Source: Candidatus Iainarchaeum sp. (lineage in GTDB: Archaea > B1Sed10-29 > WALL01). From it: DNA of 23,274 nt. The stretch lies in the NCBI GenBank assembly GCA_023129115.1, contig JAGMCR010000018.1, positions 1-23,274 of the forward strand. The letters are read 5' to 3'. The translations under genes and the position numbers were made by a program. The notes below the pieces were generated by a model. The model saw nothing but the letters and a program-made list of their open reading frames with translations, searched no databases and was not told the origin of the DNA. Below are positions 89 to 22,126 of this stretch, piece by piece. Each line of letters starts with the position of its first letter. Position 1 is the first letter of the stretch.

Positions 89-401
89 AGCCCATTTCAG
101 CAACCAGTTCGATTCCGTGCTTTTCTGGCCTTATTTTTAATTCCTTGCCCGCCTCCAAGTGATAGACCGAAACCAATTCCATTGGGAGGCGGACGGCAAT
201 GCTGTTCCCTGACTTGAAAACCTTGGCTGACAAGCCACGCTTCATGGCCTTGTTGAACTTGAGTATGTGCGCCACTTCATTGGCATTGAATACCTCTTCA
301 CCGCACTTTCCGCAGCGATAGCCCTTAACCATGAAGCCGCCTAGCCCTATGTCGTCGACCAACTTCATCGCCGCACCGCACTTGTGGCATTTATCCCTCA
401 T
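87..401 (-). CDS. Putative antitoxin/regulator: MqsA/YgiT-type zinc ribbon fused to an AbrB/MazE/SpoVT DNA-binding domain
   Basis: CHKCG...YRCGKCGEEVF zinc ribbon, then KVFKSGNSIAVRLP (AbrB/MazE signature); overlaps the upstream small ORF. Confidence 0.8.
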   Translation of the reverse strand: MRDKCHKCGAAMKLVDDIGLGGFMVKGYRCGKCGEEVFNANEVAHILKFNKAMKRGLSAKVFKSGNSIAVRLPMELVSVYHLEAGKELKIRPEKHGIELVAEMG

Positions 402-3800: not shown

Positions 3801-4266
3801 TGCCGAAGTCCAGCACTTCTTTCGCGTTCCCGGATTTTTCCAGTATTTCCGGAAGGGCTGTGTCTGCGAAGAAGCTCCCCGTACTTACCAAGAAATCCCC
3901 CTCATCTTGTGCAGCCGTGCTCACTATCTTCGCGTGCTTTGCGTACTCTTTTATGACCTGGTTCGCTGCACGTATCGCTGCTGCGTCCTTCGCGTTGATG
4001 ATTATGTCGCGGAAGACAGCTAGAGGGAAGGGTTCATCTGGGTCTTCGGGCACTGGGTAATCCGCCACCATCTGCTTTACTGCGCTGAAGAACTCCTCGT
4101 CCTCCAGCTTCTTCATTATCCTTCTCTTTTTGCCGAACAAGCCGATGAAGTTTTCTTCAACGAATTCCTTTACCAGCTTCCTCGGCACCTTCCCAAGAAG
4201 CTGTTTCCCCCGCGCCTTCTTCTTTGTTACACGGGTTTTCGCTTTTACCCCGCCCTTTTTCCCCAT
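802..4266 (-). CDS. Large orphan protein (about 1154 aa) with alpha-helical repeats of about 35-40 aa
   Basis: Long ORF; ATG at 4266 (MGKKGG) lies 32 nt from a TTTATAT box starting at 4298; recurrent F-x4-LP-x-hh-x2-A-x-[TN]-x-EEL-x-A...I-x2-[YH]P pattern. Confidence 0.85.
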   Translation of the reverse strand: MGKKGGVKAKTRVTKKKARGKQLLGKVPRKLVKEFVEENFIGLFGKKRRIMKKLEDEEFFSAVKQMVADYPVPEDPDEPFPLAVFRDIIINAKDAAAIRAANQVIKEYAKHAKIVSTAAQDEGDFLVSTGSFFADTALPEILEKSGNAKEVLDFGKAVDQLVLDHPPEAFYYRRENILPKIIDAARTPEELHAINQAIQTYRKKLTQAAPEFKRDAEGIIDSVDHFMRLTPTEILNKPKTVEELRAMSDAIRDYPREWDIGGFVEGILPDMLEAANGTERIRAASQIIQTYTKTRLVTTGDFNDILLDVMKNTTTPEELMEVDKLIRTHPKEGYMEEFVAACLKDIAKTAKNAEEIRELGKTAYQLIRKYQDPNTQEHFIGYTLSAMLGKANNAEELRAMGEAVNKTVSSYPKNAKNADLDRLVWAGMPKLIDKARSVEEVVALNKLIQDHPKGGDINAFCRKFLPIVMEDKLKGVKDAKKRLAQMAEWGEAAHRLTREMPETLGTEGFGEYILRPAAYESKTPEDMERMVRAAHKIMEVYPGKKIEKFIEDSLPALLEWSVDPDFAGQVLKSEKEIHFIDNMYDVLEHSEDFIPETAATDANNKTDRELFRSVLWEEFKERYKLAQMDMKMPKAKEFDLHTKLKEKDKPLLAFCIANNVIPKKKSDVKRMAEELKKKLVEKAREEHGVETDEEALRAELTKRFKQKDVEGKSAEEMLDTIVGFRSKNVLRRFEQAKEHEGKEGVGDMVAFHRLPKDEKDYAVFHKIAKSKKAAWLAKEKQKAEFRKEFGVDTEDIDTHLMLTYAYHREEGDDVTKGLVSAHLKGGEDAAEEFINNLGHNKGKGTEIEVPDFEETLSGGGFNKEAFDSQAKALQGHIDFVLTGCDESKLKKIGKESVRTVLRGHVNGLKEAVKGGIKTGTDLESIRDHLKGIKRRSGSLRSEGIERSLGEAVDTTKMLSDLKTNVGKGDVGVTLHKLRGLDRLFLGLDRNHASLGSCLRITEGEYKENAKVNATENAMPILTLESNEGQRTRVQMTQLRGRGTLSHINELGVYTSLAHPTGETWIRALIATAVHNNKNLFLHSLSNDQIKYIKDLNKSIKKQGFAKMQKTVPKKGSKEPDEDECYQDLGGRRQGWFAKLNDLKEMHKRLREKRI

Positions 4267-4309
4267 TGTAAGCAATTATGTTTTATCCGGAATATAAATC
4301 CACCTCCCG

Positions 4310-4620: not shown

Positions 4621-6426
4621 GTGATAAACACGATTAGACAACCGATTATCGTGGTCCTTGGACATTGATTGCAGCTCCGGCTACAATCGACCAAAAATGT
4701 TGACCACGGGAAAACGACGTTGTTAGATAAAATTAGGGACAGCGCTATAGCCACAGGAGAACCAGGAGCAATCACCCAGTCAATAGGCGCAAGCGTAATA
4801 CCAAAAAAAACCATCGAAGAAATCTGTGGAAAACAACTAGGGAAAATGGGTATTAAGTTAACAATCCCTGGGTTGCTCATAATCGATTCGCCTGGCCACG
4901 AGGCGTTCACCACCCTGCGGAAGAGGGGGGGAAGCATCGCGGATTTTGCGGTGCTGCTTGTGGATATTAACGAGGGGCTGCAGCCGCAGACACTGGAGAG
5001 CATGGAAATACTCAAGAGCTACAAGGTGCCGTTTGTTGTGGCGGCTAATAAGATTGACCGGTTGGAGGGGTGGTACACCGAAAAGGAGAACGCTCCCTTC
5101 CTCGAGACGATACAGCGGCAGAAGGACGACGTCAAGGAAAGGCTGGACAAAAAGATTTACGAGCTCGTCGGGGCATTGCACGAAAACGGTGGGTACAGTT
5201 CCGAGAGGTTCGACCGGGTTGACGACTTCACGCAGCAGGTCGTGATTGTGCCGACCAGCGGCAAGACAGGCGAGGGGATTCCAGAGCTATTGCTGTTCAT
5301 CGCCGGATTGACGCAGAAGTACATGGAGGACAAGCTCAAGACCGGCGACAAGCCAGCCAGGGGCACTGTTCTTGAAGTGAAGGAAGTCCAGGGGTTGGGG
5401 ACTACTATTGACGCGATTATTTACGACGGGGTATTGAGCGTCGGGGACACGATTGTGGTCGGCGGCAAGAACGGGCCGATTACCACAAAAGTGAGGGCGC
5501 TGCTCGAGCCGAAGCCATTACAGGAGATAAGGGACCCCAAGAAAAAGTTCGAGCACGTGCAGAGCGTGGTTGCGTCCGCAGGCGTGAAAATCAATGCGCC
5601 CGACCTGGACGAGGCAATGGCCGGGAGCACAGTCATGGTCGCGGAAGAACTCGAGGCTGCCCAGCAGAGCATCGCGGAAGAGCTCGAGGACGTCACGATA
5701 CGCAAGGAGAGCACTGGCGTCGTCGTCAAGACCGACTCGATTGGCTCGCTCGAGGCGATTGTGCGGCTGTTAGAAAAGCGCGGCATACCGCTGAAGAGCG
5801 CAGCCGTTGGGAACGTCACGAGGAAGGATGTTCTCGAGGCAGAGGCAGTGCACGGCAAGGACAGGTATTTGGGAGTGGTGTTCGCGTTCAACACGCCGGT
5901 CTTGAAAGAGGCTGAGGGAGAGGCGCTGGAGGCGGGGGTCACTGTCTTCGAGAGCCCGGTGGTCTACAAGCTTATTGAGGAGTACGACAAGTGGCATGGG
6001 AAGGAAAGGGAAGTTGAGAAAGAAGAGGCGCTGAAGAACTCACACTACCCCGTCAAGCTCGAGCTGCTGCCGGGCTACGTGTTCCGGTCCAGCAAGCCCG
6101 CCATAATCGGCGTGGAAATCGTGGACGGGATACTCAAGGTGCCGTGCCCACTCATGAACGAGCACGGCAAAAGGTGCGGGCGGGTGAAGGAGATACAGAA
6201 GGACAAGGAAAACGTCCAGACGGCAGAGGCCGGCGAGCGGGTGTCGATTTCGGTCACCGGCATAACCATCGGGAGGCAAGTCAACGAGGGCGACGTGCTC
6301 CTGACTAACATTCCTCTAAAGGAAATCCCCAGGCTGATGAACGAGGTAAAGCACGCTTCATTGCTTGCGGAAATAAAAAAGATAAAGAAAGAACGTAAAG
6401 AACCAACTTCAATCAAAGAGGTGTAG
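4621..6426 (+). CDS. infB: Translation initiation factor aIF5B (IF-2); predicted join(4621..4663,4697..6426), about 590 aa
   Basis: IRQPIIVVLGH + [53 protein letters not shown]; canonical position upstream of rps6e; exact start codon uncertain. Confidence 0.95.
4664..4696 (+). other. Candidate 33-nt BHB/BHL-type mRNA intron in infB
   Basis: In-frame TGA at 4666; central helix TTGG(4658-61)/CCAA(4691-94); bulges AC^A and AA^A; intron stem TTGATTG/CAATCGA; removal gives CTT GGA CAT GTT GAC CAC (LGHVDH). Confidence 0.8.
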
Positions 6427-6428
6427 AA

Positions 6429-6941
6429 ATGAAGATTGTAGTGTCAAACCCAACTGACGGGAAGAGCTACCAGAAAGAGCTTGAGTCCAACCAGGACAAG
6501 ATGCTCTACGGGAAAAAGATTGGGGACGCCATCAAGGGGGACACGCTCGGCATGGGCGGGTACGAGCTTGAGCTTACCGGCGGCTCCGACAAGCAGGGAT
6601 TCCCGATGAGGGTGGACTTCCACGGCACGAGCCGCAAGAGGCTCCTGCTCTCTACCGGGCCGGGGTACAAGGCCAAAAGGAAGGGCGAGCGCAGGCGCAA
6701 GAACATCCGCGGAAACACCGTGGCCGAGGACATCGCACAGGTGAACCTCAAGGTCGTAGCCAAGGGGAAGGACCCACTGGAAAAGCTCCTTGGAAAGAAG
6801 GAAGAGGCTGCTCCCGGAAAGAAGGAAGAAAAGGCAAAAGAGAAAAAGGAAGAAAAGCCAAAGGCTGAGGAAAAAAAGCCCGAGAAGAAGGAAGAGGCCC
6901 CAAAGGCTGAAGAAAAGAAGGCCACGGAGAAGAAAGAATGA
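6429..6941 (+). CDS. rps6e: 30S ribosomal protein S6e with K/E-rich C-terminal tail
   Basis: [32 protein letters not shown]. Confidence 0.96.
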
Positions 6942-8119
6942 GCCAGGCTGAAGTCAACATTGGTTTGGTGGGCCACGTAGACCACGGCAAGACCACGCTG
7001 GTCAAGGCACTCACCGGGAAATGGACCGACACGCACAGCGAAGAGCTCAAGCGCGGCATCACAATCCGGCTCGGCTACGCCGACGTCGAGATAAAGTGCT
7101 GCTGCGACCACGCCACGGCAAAAGAGGAGTGCCCAATCTGCGGCAAGAAAACGAAGGCGAAGAGGAAAGTCGCTTTCGTCGACGCGCCGGGGCACGAGAC
7201 CCTGATGGCGGTCATGATTTCCGGGTCGGCCATAATGGACGGCGCAATCCTCGTGATTGCAGCGAACGAGCAGTGCCCGCAGCCACAGACCTACGAGCAC
7301 TTGACTGCTTTGTCGGTCATGGGGATAAAGAACCTCATCGTGGTCCAAAACAAGATAGACCTCGTCAGCAGGGAAGATGCCCTCGAGAACTACAAGCAGA
7401 TAAAGGGGTTCCTCAAGGGCACGATTGCTGAGGGGGCGCCCGTGATTCCTGTCGCGGCGCACCACGGGATAAACCTTGACTCCTTGGCAGAGGCGATAGA
7501 GGAGTACATCCCGACACCCAAGCGCGACCCCAACAAGCCGGTGCTGATGTACGTGGCCAGGAGCTTCGACGTCAACAAGCCCGGGACCGACGTTGGCAAG
7601 ATTGTCGGCGGCGTGGTCGGCGGCAGCATCATCCAGGGAAAGCTCTCCATCGGCGACGAAATCGAGATACGGCCAGGGACCAGCCGCGACGACAAGTACT
7701 CCCCCATAAAGACCAAAGTCGTCGGGCTCAACACGTGCGGCAAAACCGTCAAGGACGCCATTCCCGGGGGGCTCATCGGGGTTGGGACCGAACTGGACCC
7801 GAGCCTGACCAAGACCGACCGGTTAGTGGGCAACATCGCCGGCGACCCTGCCGCGCTCCCGCCAGTGCGGAAGCAGCTGCAGATTACTGTCGAGATGATG
7901 GATCGCGCGGTCGGGATGGAGACAGTCGAGCCACTCAAGGAAAAGGAGCCGCTCGTGCTGAACGTCGGCACCGCAACGACCATCGGCGTCGTGACCAGCC
8001 TCAAGCCGGTCACGCTCACGCTGAAGCGGCCAGTTTGTGCCGCGGACGGCAGCAAAGTCGCAATCTCCCGAAGGGTCGGAAACCGGTGGAGGCTGGTGGG
8101 CTATGGCGAAATACAGTGA
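6938..8119 (+). CDS. eif2g: Translation initiation factor aIF2 gamma subunit
   Basis: [69 protein letters not shown]. Confidence 0.98.
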
Positions 8120-8456
8120 GCTCCTGCTGGACACGAACTTCCTCGTCGAGGCGGAAAAGAGGAGAGTAATCGACAAGGCGAGGGAGCTTGTGCCGGGGGC
8201 CAAGCTGGTGACGCTGCAGGCCGTCGTAGACGAGCTCGAGGGGCACCCGGTGGCGCTGGAGCTGATAAAGGCGAACGGCGTCGAGGTCCTGCCGATAGGC
8301 GGGTACGCCGACAAGGCGATTGAGGACTACGCCGAAAAGGAAGGCGTGGCAGTCGCGACGAACGACAAGGCCCTCACCGAGAGGCTGAGGGGAAAAGGCA
8401 TCGGGGTCGTGTTCCCGACAAAGGCGGGATGCGACTTCGTTGGAGGAATAGCATAA
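8103..8456 (+). CDS. PIN-domain protein (Fcf1/Utp24-like)
   Basis: [23 protein letters not shown]; conserved position between eif2g and rpoE1; ATG at 8103. Confidence 0.88.
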
Positions 8457-8468
8457 GGAGGGGCAATA

Positions 8469-9053
8469 ATGTACAAATTGATAACCCTGAAGGACACCGT
8501 GCGTGTCCCGCCGGCACTGTTCGGCAAGAAAATAGACGAGTCCGTAGTGGACGTGCTTCGGCAGAAGTACGAGAACAAGATAGACGCTGACCTCGGTGTG
8601 ATCCTCGCGATTTCAAAAGTGAAGGACATCGGCGACGGGAGAATAATCCCTGGAGACGGCGCGGCATACCACGACCTCACGTTCGAGGCGCTGGCGTTCC
8701 AGCCCAAGCTCCACGAGACATTCACCGGCAAGGTCAGCGAAATCGCGCAGTTCGGCGCCTTCGTCCGCATGGGGCCGATTGACGGCCTGGTGCACGTGTC
8801 GCAGGTCACGGACGACTTCATCTCGTACAACGAGAAGACCGGCACGCTGACCGGGAAAGAAAGCGGCAAGATCCTGAAGGAAGGCGACAGCGTGCGCGCC
8901 AAGGTCGTGACGCTGAGCATGAAGCCCCTGTTAACGGACAGCAAGATTGGGCTAACCATGAGGCAACCGGGCCTAGGGAAGATTGACTGGATTGAGGACG
9001 CCAAGAAGCCAAAGAAAAAGCCCGCGGCAAAAGGGAGCAAGCCAAAGAGATAG
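8469..9053 (+). CDS. rpoE1: RNA polymerase subunit Rpo7 (E')
   Basis: MYKLITLKDTVRVPP, IIPGDGAAY, FGAFVRMGPIDGLVHVSQV, KIGLTMRQPGLGK; SD GGAGG. Confidence 0.97.
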   Translation: MYKLITLKDTVRVPPALFGKKIDESVVDVLRQKYENKIDADLGVILAISKVKDIGDGRIIPGDGAAYHDLTFEALAFQPKLHETFTGKVSEIAQFGAFVRMGPIDGLVHVSQVTDDFISYNEKTGTLTGKESGKILKEGDSVRAKVVTLSMKPLLTDSKIGLTMRQPGLGKIDWIEDAKKPKKKPAAKGSKPKR

Positions 9054-9063
9054 GTGATGACTG

Positions 9064-9255
9064 ATGGCAAGCAAGGCATGCAAGAACTGCAAGTTCGTGA
9101 TTGACGAGGGCGACGTCTGCCCCGCGTGCGGGGGGACCGAGCTCACGACGAACTGGAAGGGCTTCGTCGTAATCTTCGACGCATCGAAGTCGAACATAGC
9201 CCAGAAGATGGGGCTCTCGATGCCCGGAAAGTACGCCCTGAGGCTAAGCAAGTGA
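9064..9255 (+). CDS. spt4: Transcription elongation factor Spt4 (RpoE'')
   Basis: KACKNC...CPACG...WKGFVVIFD..KSNIAQKMG...PGKYAL; SD GGTGAT. Confidence 0.96.
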   Translation: MASKACKNCKFVIDEGDVCPACGGTELTTNWKGFVVIFDASKSNIAQKMGLSMPGKYALRLSK

Positions 9256-9743
9256 GCTACAGGCTGACGCCCGAGCTGCGTGCAAGGCTGAAGGAGCCGT
9301 TCGGGAAGCTCTTGCCAGAGCCGGACTGGGACGGCGAGTTCATTGCCGTCGGGGACGAATGTGCGTTCCTCGCGGCCAAGGCGGGCAAGGAGCCGATGGT
9401 TACGGTGTACGACTTCCGCATAAAGCGCAAGGAAATCTCCGAGGAAAAGCGGGAGGCCATCGAGAAGATGCCGGGCAAGACCATAACAGTCGACAACCCC
9501 GCCGGAGAAATAACCGGCGAGGCCGAGATGGCCATCCGGCTTGCGCTGGAAAGCAAGCCGTCCAAGGTGTGCGTGAACGGCGAGGAGGACCTGCTGGTCC
9601 TGCCGTGCATCGTGCACGCGCCGGAGGGGACCGTAGTGTACTACGGACAGCCCGACGACGGGGCCGTCAAAGTGGAAGTGACCGCCAAAAAAAAAGAAGA
9701 GGCAAGGGAAATCATGCTCTCAATGAAGGAGGTAGAACAATGA
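9252..9743 (+). CDS. DUF359 family GTP-dependent dephospho-CoA kinase
   Basis: LKEPFGKL, IAVGD, NPAGEIT, VNGEEDLLVLP, VYYGQPDDG; GTG start overlapping the spt4 stop. Confidence 0.92.
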   Translation: MSYRLTPELRARLKEPFGKLLPEPDWDGEFIAVGDECAFLAAKAGKEPMVTVYDFRIKRKEISEEKREAIEKMPGKTITVDNPAGEITGEAEMAIRLALESKPSKVCVNGEEDLLVLPCIVHAPEGTVVYYGQPDDGAVKVEVTAKKKEEAREIMLSMKEVEQ

Positions 9744-10201
9744 ACATTGAGGTGGAAAACGAGAACGTCAACCGCCTGCTCCACCGCACCGAGCTGAAGT
9801 GCAGGATGGAGACCGGCGGCGTGACTCCCTCGAGGAAAGAGATTATACGGCAGATAGCCGCGAAGAAGGGCGTAAAGGAAGAGCTCGTCGTCGTGGACAG
9901 GATAGACCAGGAGTACGGCAAGAAAGAAGCAACGGCGTACGTCAAGGTCTACGAGTCCGAGAAGGCGGCGCAGTCCATCGAGCCCAAGTACAAGATAGAG
10001 CGCGGCGCAAAAGCGCTGAAGCCGCCCGAAAAGAAGGAAGAGCCAAAGGCAGAGGAAAAGCCACCAGCTGAGGAAGCACCAACCGGGGAGTCGCCCGGTG
10101 GCGACTCCCCCAAGGAAGATGCGCCTGCCGAGGAGAAGAAGGAAGAAGAGGCTCCGAAAGCAGAGGAAGCCCCTGCTGAAGAAAAGAAGGAGGGAGAGTA
10201 A
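9740..10201 (+). CDS. rps24e: 30S ribosomal protein S24e with E/K/P/A-rich tail
   Basis: NRLLHRTE, TPSRKEI, YG...AYVKVYES, EPKY; ATG at 9740 with SD GGAGGT. Confidence 0.94.
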   Translation: MNIEVENENVNRLLHRTELKCRMETGGVTPSRKEIIRQIAAKKGVKEELVVVDRIDQEYGKKEATAYVKVYESEKAAQSIEPKYKIERGAKALKPPEKKEEPKAEEKPPAEEAPTGESPGGDSPKEDAPAEEKKEEEAPKAEEAPAEEKKEGE

Positions 10202-10407
10202 TGGGAAAGAAGAGTGGTGAGCGCAAGGGCAAGAAAGCACCCCGCAAGAGGAACCGCGTCAAGAAGTCCTCGCTCTACGAGGCCAAGGAAGGGCGGCTGG
10301 AGCGCAAGCGCACCCCATGCCCCAAGTGCGGCGCCGGAGTGTTCATGGCAGAGCACGAGAACCGGATGAGCTGCGGCAAGTGCGGCTACACCAAGTGGAA
10401 GAAATGA
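10201..10407 (+). CDS. rps27ae: 30S ribosomal protein S27ae
   Basis: CPKCGAGVFMAEHENRMSCGKCGYT. Confidence 0.97.
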   Translation: MGKKSGERKGKKAPRKRNRVKKSSLYEAKEGRLERKRTPCPKCGAGVFMAEHENRMSCGKCGYTKWKK

Positions 10408-11357
10408 TTTGCCTCGGCATCGAAAGCACCGCCCACACTTTTGGGGTGGGCGTGTTCGACGGCAAGGCACGCGCGAACGAGAAAGCTGTCTATCGGACGA
10501 TGGGCGGCATCCACCCCCGCGAGGCCTCGCAGTTCATGTGCACGCACGCGGCGGAAGTGGCCGAGGCGGCCCTCGAAAAAGCAGGGATTGGGCTGGGGGA
10601 CGTTGATGCGTTCGCGTTCGCCCAGGGCCCGGGCCTCGGGCCATGCCTCCGGGTGGGCGCGGCAGTTGGCCAGGCTCTGGCAGGCTATTACGGTAAGCCA
10701 GTAGTTGGCGTGAACCACTGCGTTGCGCACATAGATGTCGGGAAATGGAACCGGAAGGCGAGGGACCCGCTGGTGGCCTATGTCTCCGGGGCCAACACCC
10801 AGATACTCGGCCTGAACGGGGGGAGGTACAGGGTGTACGGCGAGACCCTGGACATAGGGATGGGCAACGCGCTGGACGTTTTCGGGAGGTCAATCGGGCT
10901 TGAGTTCCCAGCGGGGCCGGCGATAGAAAAATTGGCCGCCAAGGGAAAAAAGTTCCACTTCCTGCCTTATTCTGTCAAGGGGATGGACCTCGCGTTCGCG
11001 GGCCTGGTGACTGCGGCGTCGAAGTCGAAAATTCCGAGGGCTGACTTGTGCCACTCGTTCCAGGAAACTGTTTTTGCGATGCTTGTCGAGGTCAGCGAGC
11101 GGGCGCTGGCGCACACAAAGAAAGAGGAGCTGATGCTCGTGGGGGGGGTCGCGCAGAACAAACGCCTCGGCGCAATGCTGTCGCAGATGGCAGAGGAGCA
11201 CGGCGCGAAGTTCTTTGTCCCCGAAAACCAGTACAACGCGGACAACGGGCTTATGATTGCACTGACCGGGTGGAAGATGCTCAGGGCGAAAGTCAGGCAG
11301 GGGGGCCTGAAGACGAACCAGAAGTGGCGGACCGACGAAGTGGCTATTGCCTGGTGA
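10404..11357 (+). CDS. kae1: KEOPS t6A tRNA threonylcarbamoyltransferase Kae1
   Basis: LGIESTAHTFG, GGIHPREA, GPGLGPCL, VNHCVAH, GETLDIGMGN, ADNGLMIA; ATGA overlap with rps27ae. Confidence 0.97.
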   Translation: MICLGIESTAHTFGVGVFDGKARANEKAVYRTMGGIHPREASQFMCTHAAEVAEAALEKAGIGLGDVDAFAFAQGPGLGPCLRVGAAVGQALAGYYGKPVVGVNHCVAHIDVGKWNRKARDPLVAYVSGANTQILGLNGGRYRVYGETLDIGMGNALDVFGRSIGLEFPAGPAIEKLAAKGKKFHFLPYSVKGMDLAFAGLVTAASKSKIPRADLCHSFQETVFAMLVEVSERALAHTKKEELMLVGGVAQNKRLGAMLSQMAEEHGAKFFVPENQYNADNGLMIALTGWKMLRAKVRQGGLKTNQKWRTDEVAIAW

Positions 11358-11556
11358 GGTATTCGTAGCAATACGGGCAGACCTCTTTCCCACCGAAGCC
11401 GAGGAAGCCGCCCAGGCTTTTCGCGCACAGGGCGCAGAGGCGCATGCCGCACTCGCTGCACGTGTGGACCGCCCACGGGCCCCTCATTCTGCAGCCGCAC
11501 ACGGGACAAAATGCCGATGCAGGGGTTGGGGTTCCGCCGCCCCGGTCAAGGAACAT
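11344..11556 (-). CDS. Small protein (70 aa) with four CxxC pairs; FYVE/RING-like double zinc finger
   Basis: CPVC...HTCSECG..LCALC...VCPYCY; ATG at 11556 lies 29 nt from a TTATATA box. Confidence 0.75.
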   Translation of the reverse strand: MFLDRGGGTPTPASAFCPVCGCRMRGPWAVHTCSECGMRLCALCAKSLGGFLGFGGKEVCPYCYEYLTRQ

Positions 11557-11594
11557 AACAAAGAATAAAAAGCGTCGGTATATAATGGTTCCCC

Positions 11595-12296
11595 ATGACC
11601 GAGCTTTTGTACATGCAGGACTGCTACGCCAAGGAGTTCGACGCGAGCGTTGTCTCTTTTGGGAAGGGATACGCCGTGCTGGACAGGAGCGCGTTCTACC
11701 CCGGGGGCGGGGGACAGCCCAGTGACACAGGCACGCTGAACGGCGTGGGGGTGAGGGAAACCAGGAAGAAAGAGGGGGAGATAAGGCATTACGTGGAAGG
11801 GCCGCTTGATGGCGGGGTGCACGGCGTGCTGGACTGGGGACCAAGGTACGCGCACATGAGGATGCACACGGCACAGCATTTGCTGTCCGCCCTCGTGCTC
11901 GACAAGTACGGCGCAGAGACTGTTGGGAACCAGATACACGCCGATTATTCGCGGATGGACTTTGCGCTGGCTTCCGTTGACGACGAGATGCGCGGCTGGC
12001 TGGCGCACGAGTTCGACAAGGCAGTGGGCGAGGCGAGGGAAGTCAGGATTTACACTACGGGGAGGGACGACGTGATTGCGTCGGTGGACCCGAGGCGCAG
12101 GAAGCTCTTCGAGCGCGTGCCGCCGTTCGTCAAGGAAGTGCGGGTCGTTGAGATAGACGGCATCGACAAGTGCCCCTGTGCCGGGACGCACGTTGCGAAC
12201 ACGAAAGAAATCGGGGGCATTACGATAACGCGCGCCGAAAACAAGGGCGCGGGCAAAACGCGCCTCGTTTTTGAGCTGGGGCAGGGAAACCTTTAA
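11595..12296 (+). CDS. alaXM: Free-standing alanyl-tRNA editing protein AlaX-M
   Basis: FYPGGGGQPSDTG, MRMHTAQHLL (HxxxH), CPCAGTHV (CxxxH). Confidence 0.95.
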   Translation: MTELLYMQDCYAKEFDASVVSFGKGYAVLDRSAFYPGGGGQPSDTGTLNGVGVRETRKKEGEIRHYVEGPLDGGVHGVLDWGPRYAHMRMHTAQHLLSALVLDKYGAETVGNQIHADYSRMDFALASVDDEMRGWLAHEFDKAVGEAREVRIYTTGRDDVIASVDPRRRKLFERVPPFVKEVRVVEIDGIDKCPCAGTHVANTKEIGGITITRAENKGAGKTRLVFELGQGNL

Positions 12297-12332
12297 AAAG
12301 CGTGCCCAGTTAATTGCTTTTGGTGATAGCCA

Positions 12333-12971
12333 ATGCCTAGAACTAAAATGGAACGGCTCTTGGTGAACCCAGAAAAGTTTTTTGAGAAAGTTGTGAAAGA
12401 AGACGTCAAAGAGGCTTGGAAATACATGGCCTACTGGGCGCTTCTGCCTAGCCTGGTTGCCATAATTGCCATCGGCTTTCTGGACGTGCCGCTCGGCGGC
12501 TACGTCGCGATGCCGACATGGCTTGGGGACCTCGTGCTTGGCGGCATGCCCTTGGCTGGAGTAAGCCTCGGAGTCGCGACCGGAATCGCTATTTATTTGG
12601 GCATCTTCATTGGTGTATTCATAACATCCATAGTGGCCCACGCGGTTGCAAGCGTAATGAAAGGGAGGGGCAAGTTCGAGGACACGCTGCAGGCAGTCAT
12701 CTACGGCACGTCTCCGTTCTATGCCTTTGGATGGCTCCCGATTTTCGGCCCGCTCTTTGGGCTGTACTCGGTGCTTGTCCAGGTCCCTGGCTTCAAGGCA
12801 CTGCACAGGACGAAGTACGTCAAATCTGTGCTGATTGTCCTTGGGACGCTGCTGCTGATTGGCGTGCTTACCGGAATTATGCCCATTCTCACGGGCGTGT
12901 TTGCAACTGGGTACCACCCTGGAATCGTTGTTAACGGCATAAAGGGGATTATCACACTGATGCTGGTGTGA
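12333..12971 (+). CDS. Yip1-domain integral membrane protein
   Basis: LLVNPEKFFEKV N-terminus, GRGKFEDTLQAVIYG..P, about 5 hydrophobic segments; SD GGTGAT. Confidence 0.8.
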   Translation: MPRTKMERLLVNPEKFFEKVVKEDVKEAWKYMAYWALLPSLVAIIAIGFLDVPLGGYVAMPTWLGDLVLGGMPLAGVSLGVATGIAIYLGIFIGVFITSIVAHAVASVMKGRGKFEDTLQAVIYGTSPFYAFGWLPIFGPLFGLYSVLVQVPGFKALHRTKYVKSVLIVLGTLLLIGVLTGIMPILTGVFATGYHPGIVVNGIKGIITLMLV

Positions 12972-12984
12972 ATTCCCCCCACTC

Positions 12985-12998
12985 CTTTTTTATTTTTC
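12985..12998 (+). terminator. Oligo-T tract after the Yip1 gene (may double as the bud32 promoter)
   Basis: ttttttatttttc shortly after the stop codon. Confidence 0.4.
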
Positions 12999-13017
12999 AC
13001 TGCGCAAAAGCATAGCC

Positions 13018-13599
13018 ATGCTTATTTACAGGGGCGCCGAGGCCGAACTCTACAAGGGAAAGTTTTTTGGCATCGACTGCGTCCGCAAGGTAAGAAAGGA
13101 AAAGAAGTACAAGGAAGCACAGCTGGACCGGAAGCTGCGGGGAGAGCGGCTGCGCAACGAGGCGCGCATGCTTTCCCGGGCGAGGGAAGTGGTTTCCACG
13201 CCCCGCGTGCTGGCAGTGAGTGGCGATACTTTGGTGATTGAGTACGTCGATGGCGACAAGGTAAAAGACCTGTTTTTGAGTGGGGACACGAAGGCCGCGT
13301 CAAGGATAGGGAAGGCAATCCGGCGGATGCACGACAGCGGCATCGTGCACAACGACTTGACGACCAGCAATTTGATTCTGAAGGCTGGGAAAGTGTTTTT
13401 CATCGACTTCGGGCTGGCCCAGCAGAGCACAGCGCTCGAGGACAGGGCGGTCGACCTCGTGGTGTTCAAGAGGATGCTGTCGTCCACGCACTACGATGTT
13501 TTTGGGCGGGTGTGGCCCAGGGTGCTCGCGGGGTACGGCGCCGGGGACAGGATTCTGGCCAAAGTGCAGGAAATCGAGTCCAGAGCAAAATACAAGTAA
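13018..13599 (+). CDS. bud32: KEOPS kinase/ATPase Bud32
   Basis: RGAEAEL, LDRKLR..R...EAR, IVHNDLTTSN, FIDFGL, EDRAVDL, IESRAKY. Confidence 0.95.
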   Translation: MLIYRGAEAELYKGKFFGIDCVRKVRKEKKYKEAQLDRKLRGERLRNEARMLSRAREVVSTPRVLAVSGDTLVIEYVDGDKVKDLFLSGDTKAASRIGKAIRRMHDSGIVHNDLTTSNLILKAGKVFFIDFGLAQQSTALEDRAVDLVVFKRMLSSTHYDVFGRVWPRVLAGYGAGDRILAKVQEIESRAKYK

Positions 13600-13633
13600 A
13601 CCCTTTTAAAGCAAAAATGTCACAGGTATTAGC

Positions 13634-14629
13634 ATGGGCAAAATGAGGAGCTGGGGCAAGAAGAAGAGAGAACCGCAGGTAGCCATGCGAATGGGTTTCA
13701 AGGAAGACCTAGCAACAAAGAAAGATAAGGGGAAAAGGATAAGAGACACGCTTGTGGAGCCCGGCGCCAGGCTGCCCGAGCAGAAGGCACTGCCCCCCGC
13801 GCCCGCGGAAATCGAGGCGGAGCTGGAGAAGGTAAGCACTGCCAGGAAGGTGTGGCCGTTCGGGGGGGATAAGGACAACCTGGTGGACAAGGGCGAGATT
13901 TACCAGGCCCTGCTGCGGAGAGCTAGGGACGTGCCCCTGATTTACAAGAAGCTCATGAATTCCCACCACGGAATCATAGAGGGGAGGCCCCACGAGAACA
14001 TCTACATCCTCACGCTTAGGGTGAGGCCGCTTTACAAGAAGAGCTTGGGCGAGCAGGTTGACGTGAGGTGGCTCCCGAAGAAGCCATGGGAGTGGGTACA
14101 GGCCGCCAAGGTATACTTCACCAAGGAAAACATTCTCAGCAAGCTGTGGAGCCCGAACCCGGACGACGTGACGCACTTTGGCAGCGAAGTGATGATTGTG
14201 CACGACCGTGAGCCCGACGAAACCCAAGAATTCGTGACGGACTACTCTCCGGACCCCAGGTACGGCACATTCAATAGAAACAGGTACAGGCATTCCGTAA
14301 GGAGCCGGCGCACGGACACCATCGACAAAATCTATGAGAACCGCGAAGTGGAGAACACGTTCGACGTGCACATGCTCATCGGACAGTCGACGATGGACCC
14401 CAAGTCAAAGGTCAAGAAAAGGGTTGGCAAGGACATGGTGGTCAGGGGGGGGCTGTACGTAAAGCCAGACATAGAGCTCCTCAACTTGATTGAGGGCAGC
14501 GTCAGGCCGCTAATCCCCAAGACCCTAAGAAAGAAGACGTTCGAGGCTATACAGGCCATGCGCAAGAAGCAGTATGACTTTGCTACAACAGGCATAGAAT
14601 TGCTGCCGAAACTGGTAGGGGTGGAGTGA
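13634..14629 (+). CDS. Hypothetical basic protein (331 aa)
   Basis: Long ORF filling the bud32-rdgB gap, with its own TTTTAAA box about 30 nt upstream; no family recognised. Confidence 0.8.
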   Translation: MGKMRSWGKKKREPQVAMRMGFKEDLATKKDKGKRIRDTLVEPGARLPEQKALPPAPAEIEAELEKVSTARKVWPFGGDKDNLVDKGEIYQALLRRARDVPLIYKKLMNSHHGIIEGRPHENIYILTLRVRPLYKKSLGEQVDVRWLPKKPWEWVQAAKVYFTKENILSKLWSPNPDDVTHFGSEVMIVHDREPDETQEFVTDYSPDPRYGTFNRNRYRHSVRSRRTDTIDKIYENREVENTFDVHMLIGQSTMDPKSKVKKRVGKDMVVRGGLYVKPDIELLNLIEGSVRPLIPKTLRKKTFEAIQAMRKKQYDFATTGIELLPKLVGVE

Positions 14630-14635
14630 AACGCC

Positions 14636-15172
14636 GTGTTTTTCGTTACCGGCAACCCCGGCAAGTTCAAAGAGGCAGTGGGGCTTATTCCCGGGCTGAA
14701 GCAATCCGACATCCACCCACTGGAACTCCAGGCAGATTCGCTGGAAGAAGTCGCTGTTTTCAGCATAAGGCACGCGTTCGAGGAATTGGAGGAGCCGTGC
14801 TTTGTCGAGGACGCTGGGCTGTTCATTTCGGCGCTGAACGGGTTTCCGGGGGTCTACAGCAAGCCAGTTTGGGAGAAGATTGGGCTCAAGGGCGTTCTGA
14901 AGCTGCTTGACGGAGCGGGGAATCGTTCTGCGGTGTTTCGGGCGGTGATTGCCTATCATGACGGCGAAAAGATTCACACGTTTAAAGGGGAGTGCAGGGG
15001 CAGCATCGCGATGGAAAAGCGGGGGACAAGTGGGTTCGGGTTCGACCCCGTGTTCGTGCCAGAGGGGCACGAAAAGACGTTTGCAGAGGACTTCGCGTAT
15101 AAACAACAAGTGAGCCACAGGGCGAGGGCCTTGAAGGCTTTTCTGAGGACTTTACAGCCAAAACCTTTATAA
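14636..15172 (+). CDS. rdgB: dITP/XTP pyrophosphatase (HAM1/RdgB family)
   Basis: FVTGNPGKFKE, VEDAGLFISALNGFPGVYS, GFGFDPVF, SHRARAL. Confidence 0.95.
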   Translation: MFFVTGNPGKFKEAVGLIPGLKQSDIHPLELQADSLEEVAVFSIRHAFEELEEPCFVEDAGLFISALNGFPGVYSKPVWEKIGLKGVLKLLDGAGNRSAVFRAVIAYHDGEKIHTFKGECRGSIAMEKRGTSGFGFDPVFVPEGHEKTFAEDFAYKQQVSHRARALKAFLRTLQPKPL

Positions 15173-15190
15173 ATGGACGGATTCAGAATA
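15160..15190 (+). promoter_or_regulatory. BRE/TATA promoter of the rps15 operon
   Basis: aaaacctttataaatggacggattcagaata; overlaps the rdgB stop; near-identical to 4516-4546. Confidence 0.8.
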
Positions 15191-15263
15191 AGGGCACGGA
15201 CGCCCTTCGCCAAAGGAATCCGACTCGTTTTGACGTTCCAGTAGAACAAGAATAGTGGTTATC

Positions 15264-15719
15264 ATGGCAAGAATGCACGCACGAAAAAGGGGCAAGAGCG
15301 GCTCCAAAAAGCCCGCCGTCAAGGCCAAGCCCGACTGGGTAGAGGCAGACAAAAGGGAAGTGGAGGGCCTAATCGTCAAGTTCGCCAAGGAAGGCATGGC
15401 GCCCAGCGCCATCGGCCGAGAGCTGAGGGACAGCTACGGCATCCCAAGCGCCAAAGACGTCGTCGGCAAGACAATCAACGCCGTGCTCAAGGAGCAGAAG
15501 GCCGCGCCAGACTATCCAGAGGACTTATTGAGCCTGATTAAGAAGGCCGTCTTCCTGCGCAAGCACTTGGAAAAGAATCCGAAGGACACCCACAACAAGC
15601 GTGGGCTCACGCTGATTGAGTCCAAGATAAGGCGGCTCCAGAAGTACTACAAAAGGAAAAAGGTTCTGCCCAAGGACTGGTACTACAAGCCCGAAGAGGC
15701 GGGCCTCCTGGTGAAGTGA
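15264..15719 (+). CDS. rps15: 30S ribosomal protein uS15 (S15/S13e)
   Basis: [49 protein letters not shown]. Confidence 0.98.
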
Positions 15720-15844
15720 TGAAGTACGGGGCAAGAGCCAAGCTGGGGGACAAGGAGATAAAAGGCAACTACAGCATCATGGAACTGCTCGGGAAAATAG
15801 AGGAAATGGTGGAAAAGCATGTCGAAAAAGAAAAAAGCCATTAA
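15719..15844 (+). CDS. 41-aa micro-ORF in the syntenic slot of KEOPS Pcc1
   Basis: [41 protein letters not shown]; TGATG overlap with rps15 and overlap with the rps3ae start; too short for the ORF track. Confidence 0.6.
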   Translation: MKYGARAKLGDKEIKGNYSIMELLGKIEEMVEKHVEKEKSH

Positions 15845-16472
15845 GGCCGCAAAGAAGGCGGCAAAAGCCAAGGCACCCATAAAGAAAAAGAAGAAGGTGC
15901 GGGCCGTCGACACCTGGAAGTCAAAGCGCTGGTACACCATCAAGGCGCCAAAAATCTTCGAGGAAAAGGAAATCGGCAAGGCAGTGAGCTCAGACCCCAA
16001 ACTGCTCACCGGCAGGTCAATCAAGGTCACGATGCGCGACATCACGGGCAACATCCCCCAGCAGAACATCAAGCTCAACTTCAAGGTCACGGACGTCAAG
16101 GGCGAGAGCCTCGAGACCATGCCAGTGGCCTACGAGTACAACCGCGGCTATATATCGCGCCAGACCAGGAGGATGCACTCCATCATAACCACCATCGCAG
16201 ACGTCGCCACAAAAGACGGCTACCGCCTGCGCGTGAAGGCGCTCTCCTTCGGCCACGGCAAGATGAAGCTCATCCAGCGCAAGGAAATCAGGCGCATCAC
16301 AGAGGAAATGCTCAAGGCCACTGCCGCCAAGACAACCTACGACAGGCTCTTCCTTGACATGCTCCACGGGAAAGTCGGCAGCGAAATCTACAAGAGCGCC
16401 AAGAAAATTTATCCCATTACGAGGAGCGAAATAGTGAAGAGCCGCATTCTGGCAGCGCCGCAGAAGAAGTGA
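15819..16472 (+). CDS. rps3ae: 30S ribosomal protein S3Ae (eS1) with K/A-rich N-terminal extension
   Basis: DTWKSKRWYTIKAPKIF, GRSIKVT..DITG, TKDGYRLRV, AKKIYP...EIVKS. Confidence 0.96.
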   Translation: MSKKKKAIKAAKKAAKAKAPIKKKKKVRAVDTWKSKRWYTIKAPKIFEEKEIGKAVSSDPKLLTGRSIKVTMRDITGNIPQQNIKLNFKVTDVKGESLETMPVAYEYNRGYISRQTRRMHSIITTIADVATKDGYRLRVKALSFGHGKMKLIQRKEIRRITEEMLKATAAKTTYDRLFLDMLHGKVGSEIYKSAKKIYPITRSEIVKSRILAAPQKK

Positions 16473-17406: not shown

Positions 17407-18939
17407 TCAGCGAGGCTGCTCGTGCCGCCACAAGCGCTTGACCCTCGACTCGACAATAAGCCCGACGTCGCCGGAGACGCCGAGCGACCTGCCCTTCGAC
17501 TTGATGTACCTGCGCACCAGCTCCGGCACGGCGATGTTGGCGTCCGCAGGGTCACTGACTTTCCCGAGCGCCACTCGCTGGCCCGCCGCCGGGCTCTGCT
17601 CGATGACGCAGCCCGCATAGTCCGCGAACGCCCGGACAAACGAGATGCCGGTGCGCGTGCCCTTGGCGACTGCCTCCTTCTCCAGCTCGCTTGCGCCCAT
17701 GGCTGGCGACGAAACCAGGTTCCCGTCGTAGACAAAGAGCTCGTTGTCATAGTCCCTGCCGCACAGCGTGCCTTGCTCCGCCAGGAGCCAGACCTCAACG
17801 CGGTTGTCCCCAATGTCCTTCTCCAGGAGCTTGAACTCACACGGCGCCTGCTGCTGGGAATAGAGGGAGCACGTCTTGATGATTTTGGAGGCGACTTCCT
17901 TGCCCCAAGAGAAAGGCGTGGTGGAAATGCGCACCAGGCGCGCGAGTTCGGCGTCAGGCATCATCCACTCCCCGAAGAACTGGGGCTGGTGGAACTCGTT
18001 CTCTTCTTTTGCCATGCCGAGCAGCACTCCCAGCCTGGCGACAATCAACTCAAACACGAACACAGGCGTGGCCACGCCGTAGGCGGACAGCGCGATGGGC
18101 GAAAGCATGCCAATCCTGCCGACCGCGGCCCCGCGGCACGAGACCACGAGCTCGGTGCCTGGGATGAATAGCTTGGAAGTTGCCGCAACCTTCTCAAAAG
18201 ACGGCTCGATGCCAAGCGCGGAAAAAAGCGACGTGACGAGGGACCTGCCGTCCTCGACAGACACAGCGTCGCTCACCACCGCGCCAGACGCGACGTAGCC
18301 GGGGTTGCCACCGCGGCGGAAGCCAAGGCCAATCGAAAAGAGCTGGAGCGGCGGAGACTCTTTCTTCGCCAGCACGGCAAGCGTCTCGAACCATGACTCC
18401 ACCAAGCCGTTTCTCAGCAGGAGGCCCGTGGCCTTTGGCGGGGACTCGCTGAACAGCAAGGTGACAATCTCCGACGCCTGGTCCATGCGGACCCCTGTCT
18501 TTTCGACGACACACGAGAGCAGGGCGTCAGAGTCCAGCTCGCCCCTCGAAAAGTCTGCCGCGAGTAACTTGAGCTCCTCGAGCTTGGCCTCGTTGAACGA
18601 GGGGGCGATGGCGCGCATCTTTTCAAGCGGATTGGCTGCCGGGGGCGAGCTGCGGGGGAAAGCGGAGACTGCGTAGCTGTCCAGGAGCGCCAGGCGCGCC
18701 TCTGGCCCACGCTGCTGGCGCGCCTCTGCCTCGTCGACAAAGACCGGGAGCGCAACCTCGGTGTAGCCTGCACTGATTAGCTGGATTCTTAGCTTTTGGA
18801 TGAACTCGGCCTCGGCATGCGGCTTTCCGGCCTGCTTGCTGGAGTAGCCGCCTGAAGGAATAAGGTCAATAGTCTTCATCCAAGCGCCCTCGAAGTCCTT
18901 CGAGGCCAGGCCGCTGATGTCGCTAGGGGACCATGACAT
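17407..18939 (-). CDS. O-phosphoseryl-tRNA synthetase (SepRS) homolog with degenerate active-site motifs
   Basis: LASKDFEGAW, GKPH, GPEA, LFSI..FRR, VSVEDG, SPIALSAY, PQFFGEW, NELFVYDGN are colinear with SepRS as I recall it; ATG at 18939 lies 29 nt from a TTAAATA box. Confidence 0.85.
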   Translation of the reverse strand: MSWSPSDISGLASKDFEGAWMKTIDLIPSGGYSSKQAGKPHAEAEFIQKLRIQLISAGYTEVALPVFVDEAEARQQRGPEARLALLDSYAVSAFPRSSPPAANPLEKMRAIAPSFNEAKLEELKLLAADFSRGELDSDALLSCVVEKTGVRMDQASEIVTLLFSESPPKATGLLLRNGLVESWFETLAVLAKKESPPLQLFSIGLGFRRGGNPGYVASGAVVSDAVSVEDGRSLVTSLFSALGIEPSFEKVAATSKLFIPGTELVVSCRGAAVGRIGMLSPIALSAYGVATPVFVFELIVARLGVLLGMAKEENEFHQPQFFGEWMMPDAELARLVRISTTPFSWGKEVASKIIKTCSLYSQQQAPCEFKLLEKDIGDNRVEVWLLAEQGTLCGRDYDNELFVYDGNLVSSPAMGASELEKEAVAKGTRTGISFVRAFADYAGCVIEQSPAAGQRVALGKVSDPADANIAVPELVRRYIKSKGRSLGVSGDVGLIVESRVKRLWRHEQPR

Positions 18940-18959: not shown

Positions 18960-18993
18960 GGTATTTAACGGTTTTGGGCAAAGATTAATAAGC
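18960..18993. promoter_or_regulatory. Back-to-back TATA boxes for the SepRS-like and KaiC-like genes
   Basis: tatttaa 18962-18968 (minus-strand box) and ttaataa 18986-18992 (plus-strand box), each about 29 nt from an ATG. Confidence 0.6.
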
Positions 18994-19762: not shown

Positions 19763-19835
19763 AGCCCCGTAGTGTAGCGGCCAAGCATGATGGCCTTTGG
19801 AGCCATTGACCCCGGTTCGAATCCGGGCGGGGCTA
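19763..19835 (+). tRNA. trnQ: tRNA-Gln (anticodon TTG), intronless, CCA not encoded
   Basis: Acceptor AGCCCCG/CGGGGCT with the A1-U72 pair typical of archaeal tRNA-Gln; anticodon stem ATGGC/GCCAT with TTG at 19797-19799; GGTTCGAATCC T-arm; TTTAAATA promoter near 19693. Confidence 0.97.
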
Positions 19836-21343: not shown

Positions 21344-22126
21344 GTGATAGGCATAGTGGCGTCCGAAAAAGACATTGCCGGCATGAGCATGCTGGAGTCG
21401 CTAAAGGCAAGGGGGTTCGAGGACACGTTCGAGGAATGGGCCGGAACGCCAGTGCTCGGGAAAGGAGATTTGCGGGCGGCGACAATCCCACAGGACATTA
21501 TTCACGCCGAGTCAATGGACGGGCTGGCGGAGCTGTTTGATTTGGAATTCCTCGTTTTTGCGTCGAGGCACCGCAGCCAGGCAGGCACGCCGTCCCTTAC
21601 AGTGCACTCGACCGGGAACTTTGGCAAGGCCGAGTTCGGCGGGAGGGAAAAGGAGCTGCAGGCCACGCTCGCCAACGCAAAGCACAATGTCTATCTGGAA
21701 CTGCGGGAGTGCACGCTTGACTACGAAGTGGCGCTGGAGGTCACGCACCACGGCCCCACCGGGTTCAGGACGCCATTGTTTTTCGTGGAAATCGGGTCAA
21801 GCGAAAAGCAGTGGCGGGACAAGGAAGCCGCGGAGTTTGTGGTCGATTGTATCCTGGCCGGGCTCGAGAGCAACAAAAAGCACCAGCACGCGATTGGGTT
21901 CGGCGGCGGGCACTACGCACCGAGGTTCTCGGAAATGGAGGAAGTGGCTTTCGGGCACATTTGCCCGAAGTACGCGGCTGATTTATTGGACGACGGGCTT
22001 GTGAAGCAGATGGTGGAGAAGACCGTGGACCGTGTGGACTGCGCAGTGATTGACGAGAAGGGCCTGAAGGGGCGGCAGAAGCTGGTGATTAAAAAGGCGC
22101 TCGACGGGCTCGGGGTGGAGTATTAA
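21344..22126 (+). CDS. dtdA: Archaeal D-aminoacyl-tRNA deacylase (DTD2)
   Basis: FASRHRS, SLTVHSTGN, EVTHHGPT, FVEIGS...W, GFGGGHYAP, FGHICPKY. Confidence 0.96.
   Translation: MIGIVASEKDIAGMSMLESLKARGFEDTFEEWAGTPVLGKGDLRAATIPQDIIHAESMDGLAELFDLEFLVFASRHRSQAGTPSLTVHSTGNFGKAEFGGREKELQATLANAKHNVYLELRECTLDYEVALEVTHHGPTGFRTPLFFVEIGSSEKQWRDKEAAEFVVDCILAGLESNKKHQHAIGFGGGHYAPRFSEMEEVAFGHICPKYAADLLDDGLVKQMVEKTVDRVDCAVIDEKGLKGRQKLVIKKALDGLGVEY

Follow-up and report, generated by a model that had tools for sequence, protein, structure and literature searches.

A SepRS homolog of Candidatus Iainarchaeum with degraded catalytic motifs and a conserved basic C-terminal tail

The stretch of DNA analysed here, referred to throughout as the window, comprises 23,274 nucleotides of contig JAGMCR010000018.1 (assembly GCA_023129115.1) from Candidatus Iainarchaeum sp. 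and carries a gene for a protein related to phosphoseryl-tRNA synthetase (SepRS). Judged from its sequence, this gene is an intact and conserved descendant of SepRS, and its product is almost certainly non-aminoacylating. We are moderately inclined to regard the protein as a stand-alone, non-catalytic, RNA-binding relic of SepRS that is kept under purifying selection in a lineage without SepCysS.

The open reading frame (ORF) runs on the minus strand from an ATG at 18939 to a stop codon at 17407-17409 and comprises 510 codons with no internal stops. An upstream TTG at 18981 could serve as an alternative start and would add 14 residues, but the N-termini of the orthologues align to the ATG instead. 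When compared with the NCBIfam equivalog model sepS (TIGR00470), residues 6-500 of the protein matched model positions 6-532 of 533. The score of 215.2 bits was nevertheless below the curated cut-off of 380.65, whereas canonical relatives reached 465-902 bits. A phmmer search against PDB chains returned SepRS structures only, with the Archaeoglobus fulgidus structure 2du3 aligned over residues 2-499 (E 5e-49). Likewise, a PDB sequence search with the anticodon-binding domain (ABD) plus the C-terminal tail found SepRS only, the tail part being unmatched. A search of the ESM Atlas with residues 331-510 gave no usable match, and a search for related loci in genome contigs retrieved only canonical SepRS of Methanobacterium-type records. 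Both the length of the protein and its domain order, with an N-terminal extension, a class IIc core with an insertion domain, and a C-terminal ABD, are as in SepRS. The initial annotation, which was made from the letters and their ORFs alone, had described a full-length SepRS homolog with an intact frame, and the profile alignment for which it had called bore this out over the full length of the protein.

The damage is found in the catalytic core. Alignment to 2du3 revealed that the Sep pocket has changed from LTLRSHMTTGW to LLLRNGLVESW (residues 175-183, window 18391-18417), so that SHMT now reads NGLV. In motif 2, FSIDRCFRREQGEDATRLYTYFSAS has become FSIGLGFRRG-GNPG------YVAS (residues 201-218, window 18286-18339); the Glu of this motif is replaced by Gly and the loop is short by six residues. 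In motif 3, MNLGLGVERLA has become FVFELIVARLG (residues 294-304, window 18028-18060), which turns N-x-G-x-G-x-E-R into V-F-E-L-I-V-A-R and the Asn-x-Gly element (N-L-G) into V-F-E. The three replacements had been read from the sequence in the initial annotation, and the alignment reproduced them residue by residue at the same positions. According to the parts of Chen et al. (PMC5688128) that deal with ATP binding, motif 2 of Methanocaldococcus jannaschii SepRS contacts ATP through Arg228, Glu230, His237 and Tyr240. Of the equivalents in the present protein, the Arg survives, Gly stands in place of the Glu, and the His-bearing stretch is deleted. The Asn-x-Gly element is described in the text of Mukai et al. 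(PMC8762117) as perfectly conserved in SepRS.

These changes are not peculiar to one genome. The SHMT sequence, FR[RN]E, the full-length motif 2 loop and N-x-G-x-G-x-E-R were kept in 14 of 14 canonical representatives and lost in 12 of 13 members of the clade to which the protein belongs, and so the loss cannot be attributed to chance drift. At 21 columns, conservation is 90% or higher in 23 canonical sequences and no more than 30% in the clade; 18 of the 21 lie at positions 86-312. What has taken the place of SHMT varies from member to member (NGL, HGI, SSL, DSL, RTA, GSM, SDV). The motif 3 Arg is missing in 8 of the 12 degenerate members, the position being occupied in the six closest relatives by R, R, K, G, R and R. 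Since the replacements vary and the motif 3 Arg is so often missing, no new pocket appears to be conserved in the clade. The catalytically dead look that the protein had been credited with thus agrees with the loss of the Sep pocket and of the motif 2 and 3 signatures, with one qualification. The retention of Sep- or ATP-binding residues, which had been named as an argument to the contrary, was found in part: the class II arginines R209 (motif 2) and R302 (motif 3) are still present, as is F208, while the pocket, the Glu, the loop and the glycines of motif 3 are not.

By contrast with the core, the remaining domains are retained (Table 1). Their limits were placed by alignment to 2du3. Across both the clade and canonical SepRS, the motif 1 region has invariant G58 and E61 and a nearly invariant P65. 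The insertion domain has V145, G149 and Q154 invariant in 16 clade sequences, and D329, P342 and G346 are invariant across canonical, tail-bearing and short forms. No domain is better conserved in the clade than the ABD, which has a pairwise identity of 0.42 as compared to 0.34 in canonical SepRS and contains NELFVYDGN at residues 399-407. Pairwise identity within the clade was 0.65-0.77 times that of canonical SepRS for the catalytic parts, as against 1.25 times for the linker plus ABD. Positions W325, L359, Y360, W384 and P450 of the linker and ABD are invariant and specific to the clade, and altogether 24 clade-specific conserved columns were found, clustered at 323-384, 438-450 and 497-509. 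The retention of the N-terminal part, the insertion domain and the C-terminal ABD with its NELFVYDGN sequence, as had been claimed for this protein, was thereby confirmed in the alignment to 2du3.

The last of these clusters covers most of a C-terminal tail with the consensus R(V/I)(K/R)RLWxHEQPR, which closes all clade members and was seen in none of the canonical SepRS sequences aligned. This tail is the most conserved stretch of the protein, showing 65% pairwise identity in the clade, and in 19 clade sequences R499 and W504 never vary. Its 12 residues have a net charge of +4, and it occurs only once in the six-frame translation of the organism's own genome.

Among the 13 species genomes in its order, 8 carry the gene. 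Within the phylum, which here equals the class and comprises 31 species genomes, 20 genomes gave a match at E 1e-9 or better; eight have the present form, and the remaining 11 were without a match at this threshold. Canonical SepRS (465-473 bits) occurs together with SepCysS and CysRS in 2 of 2 genomes of one family (f5), an ABD-only protein of about 200 residues in 5 of 5 genomes of another (f8), and a 389-residue truncation of SepRS in 5 of 6 genomes of a third (f10). The name of the phylum is uncertain: judged by aIF2-gamma, the closest relatives that have names, at 66-67% identity, carry the labels 'archaeon' and 'Candidatus Diapherotrites archaeon'. A search of 1.84 billion representative proteins yielded 128 of SepRS type at E 0.001 or better, and the tail or a variant of it was found at the end of 15 of the 134 proteins stored from the protein searches. 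A metagenome scan recovered 43 loci, four of which belong to the tail clade while 39 have a canonical motif 3. Among shorter proteins, a search for tail-bearing ABD-only forms returned only P0012 (172 residues), which is probably a fragment.

In a tree of 49 rows, 16 tail-bearing sequences fell on one side of a branch with an SH-aLRT value of 99, and the nearest canonical sequences came from the same phylum. Basal in the tail clade was P0009, a protein of 532 residues that is 42% identical to the present one. P0009 has the tail and near-canonical motifs, namely LRSHMTSAW, FRNEQ with the full loop and N-M-D-F-G-I-E-R, and scores 119.6 bits on PF01409. The protein of genome G004 is intermediate, with 329 bits on sepS. 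By the tree and the motifs, the tail-bearing proteins are a single clade descended from a canonical SepRS of the same phylum. As for the short forms, the ABD-only and 389-residue fragments have asnS as divergent neighbour in 7 of 7 loci (L029-L035) and aCPSF1 on the other side in 5 of these 7. They share the shortened ABD loop and the loss of GPxF with the tail clade. These loop changes suggest that the ABD-only forms and the tail clade may go back to one ancestor, but a tree built on the ABD alone separates the two (SH-aLRT 93, not decisive).

To judge from sequence divergence, the gene is under purifying selection and not in neutral decay. A Nei-Gojobori comparison with the closest relative (locus L048, 67% identical) gave a nonsynonymous divergence (dN) of 0.258 and a synonymous divergence (dS) of 1.016, a ratio of about 0.25. 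By domain, dN/dS was lowest in the catalytic-like core (0.17), followed by the ABD plus linker (0.28) and the insertion domain (0.42); all these figures are rough because dS is near saturation. The frame was intact in every clade member seen, at 30-67% identity. It is the combination of intact frames and a ratio of about 0.25 that argues against neutral decay, the outcome that had been named as contrary to a functional role when a dN/dS analysis of the orthologues was suggested.

The genomic context indicates what has become of the pathway that SepRS would serve. The organism's own genome (G000) consists of 19 contigs with a total of 1.25 Mb, at 88.6% completeness. No SepCysS gene was found in the window, as had been noted before, and none passed the cut-off of 365.25 bits in G000, the best match being one of 46.8 bits in a class-V aminotransferase. 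Of 41 related genomes, 5 have SepCysS above its cut-off and 34 have CysRS above its own; the 8 that carry this gene are all among the latter and none among the former. The loss of SepCysS implies that the two-step, tRNA-dependent route to cysteine is gone, and Sep-tRNA would serve no use. The genome search that the initial annotation had proposed for intact sepS, pscS and cysS thus recovered neither of the first two from G000 and found a canonical CysRS at 522 bits. G000 furthermore encodes a Trm5-family protein, a CysK-like protein (324.6 bits) just upstream of the tRNA-Cys gene, and a single tRNA-Cys with GCA, G37 and U73. The tRNA itself showed no difference between genomes with and without the SepRS-like gene, as 6 of 6 aligned tRNA-Cys genes have GCA, G37 and U73.

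Several loci add observations on cysteine-related genes. On contig C1 of G000, away from the SepRS-like gene, the CysK-like and tRNA-Cys genes lie in a cluster with Thi4, a 2-hydroxyacid dehydrogenase, TBP, RidA, CysRS and two class-V aminotransferases, which corresponds to the cysteine cluster described below for G004. In the two canonical-SepRS genomes of the phylum, a ThiF-family E1-like gene lies immediately upstream of SepRS on the same strand (L016:783-1496, L017:3082-3774), with SepCysS and CysRS no more than about 12 kb away. Another locus (L037, G034:C30:1-9000) combines a SepRS of 444 bits with a NifU/IscU-type scaffold gene and a SepCysS that is represented by two ORFs, with one in-frame TGA; CysRS over the cut-off was not found in that genome.

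The initial annotation had also pointed to a resemblance between the altered core and PheRS beta. This proved correct as a matter of likeness, though not of kinship. The core of the protein scored 50.5 bits on the Pfam model of the beta CLM (PF17759) and 34.3 bits on that of the class II core (F), PF01409. For canonical SepRS the respective scores were 25-37 and 129-205 bits, and for degenerate members 21-50 and at most 57 bits. In BLASTP against the organism's own PheRS, the protein scored 23.1 bits with alpha and 38.1 bits with beta (29.5% identity over 139 residues), while 4 of 4 canonical SepRS sequences scored 53-62 bits with alpha (53-67 if P0009 is counted with them) and 29 or less with beta. 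Of five degenerate members, three clearly preferred beta and a fourth did so weakly (22.7 bits, E 0.058), and the G004 protein preferred alpha (35.0 versus 25.8 bits). The shift toward beta is mostly due to the loss of the alpha-type motif score. On the models for whole PheRS beta subunits the protein remained far below the cut-offs (pheT_arch, 24.1 versus 282.65 bits; pheT_bact, 31.1 versus 402.65 bits), and of the beta-specific Pfam domains only the CLM model was matched. Because the tree places the protein inside SepRS, we consider the likeness to be weak and convergent, reflecting a common state of the sequence and not common descent.

From this likeness the initial annotation had gone on to suggest a heterotetramer in which the protein would be the non-catalytic subunit and an intact SepRS paralogue its partner, in the manner of PheRS beta and alpha. 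The idea draws on SepRS being an alpha4 enzyme with a core resembling that of PheRS, as set out in the relevant part of a review (PMC2330236), and it is also consistent with the retention of motif 1, which would form the dimer interface, and with the better scores of the dead core on beta-CLM than on alpha models. It requires, however, a partner, and no second SepRS-type gene was found in G000, at 88.6% completeness, where the only other match was the PheRS alpha region, nor was an intact sepS found in the seven other gene-carrying genomes, which include G004 (98% complete) and G007 (96% complete). With SepCysS over its cut-off in none of the eight genomes, the Sep-tRNA made by such an enzyme would moreover be without use, and we consider the heterotetramer very improbable. 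Just as little can be said for a decaying relic without function, which we hold to be scarcely credible. The gene is dispensable, being missing from 5 of the 13 genomes of the order, with the S3Ae-DUF92-KaiC block closed up without it in three of those five (G005, G006 and G009), and branches in the clade are long; against decay stand the intact frames, the dN/dS of about 0.25, and the invariance of both the clade-specific positions and the tail.

The reading towards which we lean, that of a non-catalytic RNA-binding relic, can be put as follows. An order of small-genome DPANN archaea would have inherited SepRS vertically and, charging tRNA(Cys) via CysRS and having a cysteine-synthase-type gene, would no longer make Sep-tRNA(Cys). 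The protein would have persisted as a stand-alone, probably homo-oligomeric, non-enzymatic factor that binds RNA, the likeliest ligand being tRNA(Cys) or another tRNA. The tRNA-binding scaffold with a new role, which the initial annotation had offered as its alternative, would likewise agree with what is conserved. This role is favoured by the conservation of the parts that hold the tRNA, by the basic tail, and by the occurrence of the ABD alone in two other families, the ABD-only and 389-residue families of the phylum being an independent hint that the ABD matters. A number of observations nevertheless weigh against it. The Glu pair of A. fulgidus SepRS that differs between 2du3 and the mutant chain 2du5 aligns to A388 and Q390, the loop that holds these residues is shorter by two residues, and GPxF now reads GDVG; we assume that the Glu pair and GPxF read the anticodon. 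The ABD is also less basic, with a mean net charge of -2.3 in 13 clade members as compared to +2.3 in 14 canonical sequences. Given the changed loops and GPxF, the ligand is perhaps not tRNA(Cys), or not RNA. The dispensability of the gene counts on the same side, and as regards expression, a 219-nt contig with 98% identity (window 18548-18766), present in two RNA-labelled libraries from two studies (X4 and X5), is possibly DNA and gives a weak hint of transcription. Finally, R209, R302 and F208 survive in a core that is itself constrained (dN/dS 0.17), and some ligand binding in the old active site is therefore possible for this genus.

The lowered charge of the ABD and the changes in its presumed anticodon-reading loops would also suit a protein-binding scaffold or regulator, in which the ABD and tail have been turned to a protein partner and RNA is left unbound. 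The surface can bind protein, since the section of Chen et al. (PMC5688128) on SepCysE describes a SepCysE helix bound at the ABD-ABD interface of methanogen SepRS. The tail is, on the other hand, strongly basic, which suits nucleic acid, and no conserved neighbour points to a partner; we therefore judge the scaffold to be unlikely, though not negligible. The KaiC-like neighbour had been considered as such a partner and was rejected on the ground that the S3Ae-DUF92-KaiC block exists without the gene. The surviving residues R209, F208 and R302 and the constraint on the core within the genus raise a further alternative, namely a ligase that is still active but uses a different substrate, be it a new amino acid or an acceptor other than tRNA. 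This idea was raised in general terms for degenerate SepRS genes in the text of Mukai et al. (PMC8762117). We find it rather improbable here, as motif 2 has lost its Glu and loop, most degenerate members are without the motif 3 Arg, and the pocket residues differ among members, with no conserved new pocket visible.

More specific, and in our estimation doubtful, is the notion that the protein holds tRNA(Cys) in trans beside CysRS, with the basic, Trp-containing tail acting as a docking or RNA-clamping element. According to the passages of a review on these enzymes (PMC2330236), SepRS and CysRS approach tRNA(Cys) from opposite grooves, and a SepRS:tRNA(Cys):CysRS ternary complex was speculated upon from the A. 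fulgidus SepRS structure. This speculation, together with the fact that the G004 gene adjoins CysK, CysRS and two desulfurase-type genes, is the reason for entertaining the notion. If it were true, the series from P0009 through the G004 protein to the present gene would show the origin of a non-catalytic subunit of the PheRS-beta type. The G004 cluster itself (L036, G004:C26:66000-78166) encodes an alanine aminotransferase, SufS-type and NifS/IscS-type desulfurases, CysRS, a 260-residue protein without a family and CysK/M, and is followed by the divergently transcribed SepRS-like gene.

The features of the gene and protein are listed in Table 1. Elsewhere in the window, a dense run of translation- and tRNA-related genes extends over 4669-16472 and 21344-22126. 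It includes aIF5B, S6e, aIF2-gamma, Rpo7, DUF359, S24e, Kae1, an AlaX-like tRNA_SAD protein, a Bud32-like kinase, Ham1, S15, S3Ae and the archaeal D-aminoacyl-tRNA deacylase. The sole Rfam match in the window is a tRNA-Gln (UUG) at 19763-19835 on the plus strand, between the KaiC-like gene and CarS. An ORF of 1157 residues at 802-4275 on the minus strand, for which no Pfam family was found at E 1e-4 or better, is the largest gene present, and a small ORF at the window edge (87-401, minus strand) has a MazE/AbrB-type antitoxin domain (27 bits). G000 moreover contains a second synthetase-derived non-synthetase, a 326-residue AsnRS-like paralogue of the asparagine synthetase A type (G000:C2:237-2507; 174 bits on asnS) with the true AsnRS (415 bits) directly downstream.

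Table 1. Features of the SepRS-like gene and its product, with positions in the window
Feature	Position	Strand	Basis
Coding sequence of the SepRS-like protein, 510 residues plus stop	17407..18939	-	ORF list, translation, matches to sepS and 2du3
TTAAATA, possible archaeal TATA box	18961..18967	-	22-28 nt upstream of the ATG, leaderless-type arrangement; read by eye
Residues 1-92, N-terminal extension and motif 1 region (GYTEVALPVFV), retained	18664..18939	-	Alignment to 2du3
Residues 93-172, insertion domain with clade-specific G(V/I)RMEQA motif	18424..18663	-	Alignments
Residues 173-330, degenerate class IIc catalytic-like core	17950..18423	-	Alignment to 2du3, Pfam
Residues 331-352, linker	17884..17949	-	Conserved D329, P342 and G346 at or in the linker
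Residues 353-498, anticodon-binding domain, loops changed	17446..17883	-	Alignment, pairwise identity
Residues 499-510, clade-specific basic C-terminal tail RVKRLWRHEQPR	17410..17445	-	Alignment

Proteins of this kind are already in print. The text of Mukai et al. (2022, Front Genet, PMC8762117) reports a single full-length SepRS homologue, described as 'highly degenerated', from a bin of the 'Micrarchaeota Alv-FOS5 group' and states that no other example was found; it also mentions small ABD homologues adjoining asnS in 'pISA35 group' bins, and leaves the function of non-canonical SepRS homologues as a question. Two contig names given in the legend to Fig. 8 of that paper were recovered in our metagenome scan as L050 and L051. 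Both fell in the tail clade (SH-aLRT 99), with the variant tail RIRRLWVYKKG, lost catalytic motifs and 31-34% identity to the present protein. What appears to be new is the wider clade, with 15 tail-bearing proteins, 8 of 13 genomes and 4 of 43 loci as compared to a single published example. Full-text literature searches on SepRS-like terms, which left aside the figures and most of the supplement of Mukai et al., returned only that paper and its 2017 predecessor, and in them no description was found of how widely the clade occurs, of the tail or of the intermediate form.

These findings bear on annotation and on the evolution of synthetases. The JGI/IMG annotation labels the clade members P0006, P0010 and P0011 'O-phosphoseryl-tRNA synthetase', and such labels could lead to DPANN genomes being wrongly credited with tRNA-dependent cysteine synthesis. 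The sepS cut-off together with the motif comparison given here separates the dead clade from real SepRS. Within a single phylum there is a graded series from canonical SepRS with SepCysS, through a form with the tail and near-intact motifs, a half-degraded form and a dead form, to the 389-residue form and the ABD alone. This series provides comparative material on the conversion of a synthetase into a non-catalytic protein, a process that is assumed for PheRS beta. The tail, W325, L359, Y360, W384, P450, R499 and W504 present themselves as targets for mutagenesis.

Compared with canonical SepRS (TIGR00470; 2du3, 2du7, 2odr), the present protein has the same length and domain order and has kept motif 1, the linker and the ABD. 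It differs in scoring below the cut-off, in the loss of the Sep pocket and of motifs 2 and 3, in the missing SepCysS partner and in the extra C-terminal tail. The Alv-FOS5 homologue belongs to the same clade and is likewise a full-length protein with a degraded core, in a genome that has a full set of aminoacyl-tRNA synthetases (aaRS) as far as checked, the aaRS checked in G000 being CysRS, PheRS and AsnRS. The present protein, however, ends in the consensus tail, retains the two class II arginines and comes from another family of the order. The ABD-only and 389-residue fragments of the 'pISA35 group' are likewise non-catalytic SepRS remnants in CysRS-containing genomes, but they lack the N-terminal half and the tail and lie divergently next to asnS. 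Resemblance to the SepRS-like proteins of Thermoplasmata, so far as the text of Mukai et al. (PMC8762117) describes them, lies in the missing SepCysS and the replaced Asn-x-Gly. Those proteins possibly charge another amino acid and sit in a TRAX operon (PMC8762117), whereas the present window has no TRAX neighbour and here the ATP motifs are degraded as well. With the PheRS beta module (PF17759), the protein shares a class IIc catalytic fold that is retained in spite of the loss of motifs 2 and 3, without being a member of that family, and G000 has its own complete PheRS alpha and beta, the canonical beta gene (496 bits) adjoining alpha. The HisRS-like domain of GCN2 is a further case of a synthetase fold that no longer aminoacylates but persists in a binding or regulatory role. 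HisZ (PMC5388404) is alike in this respect, and both come from a different aaRS family.

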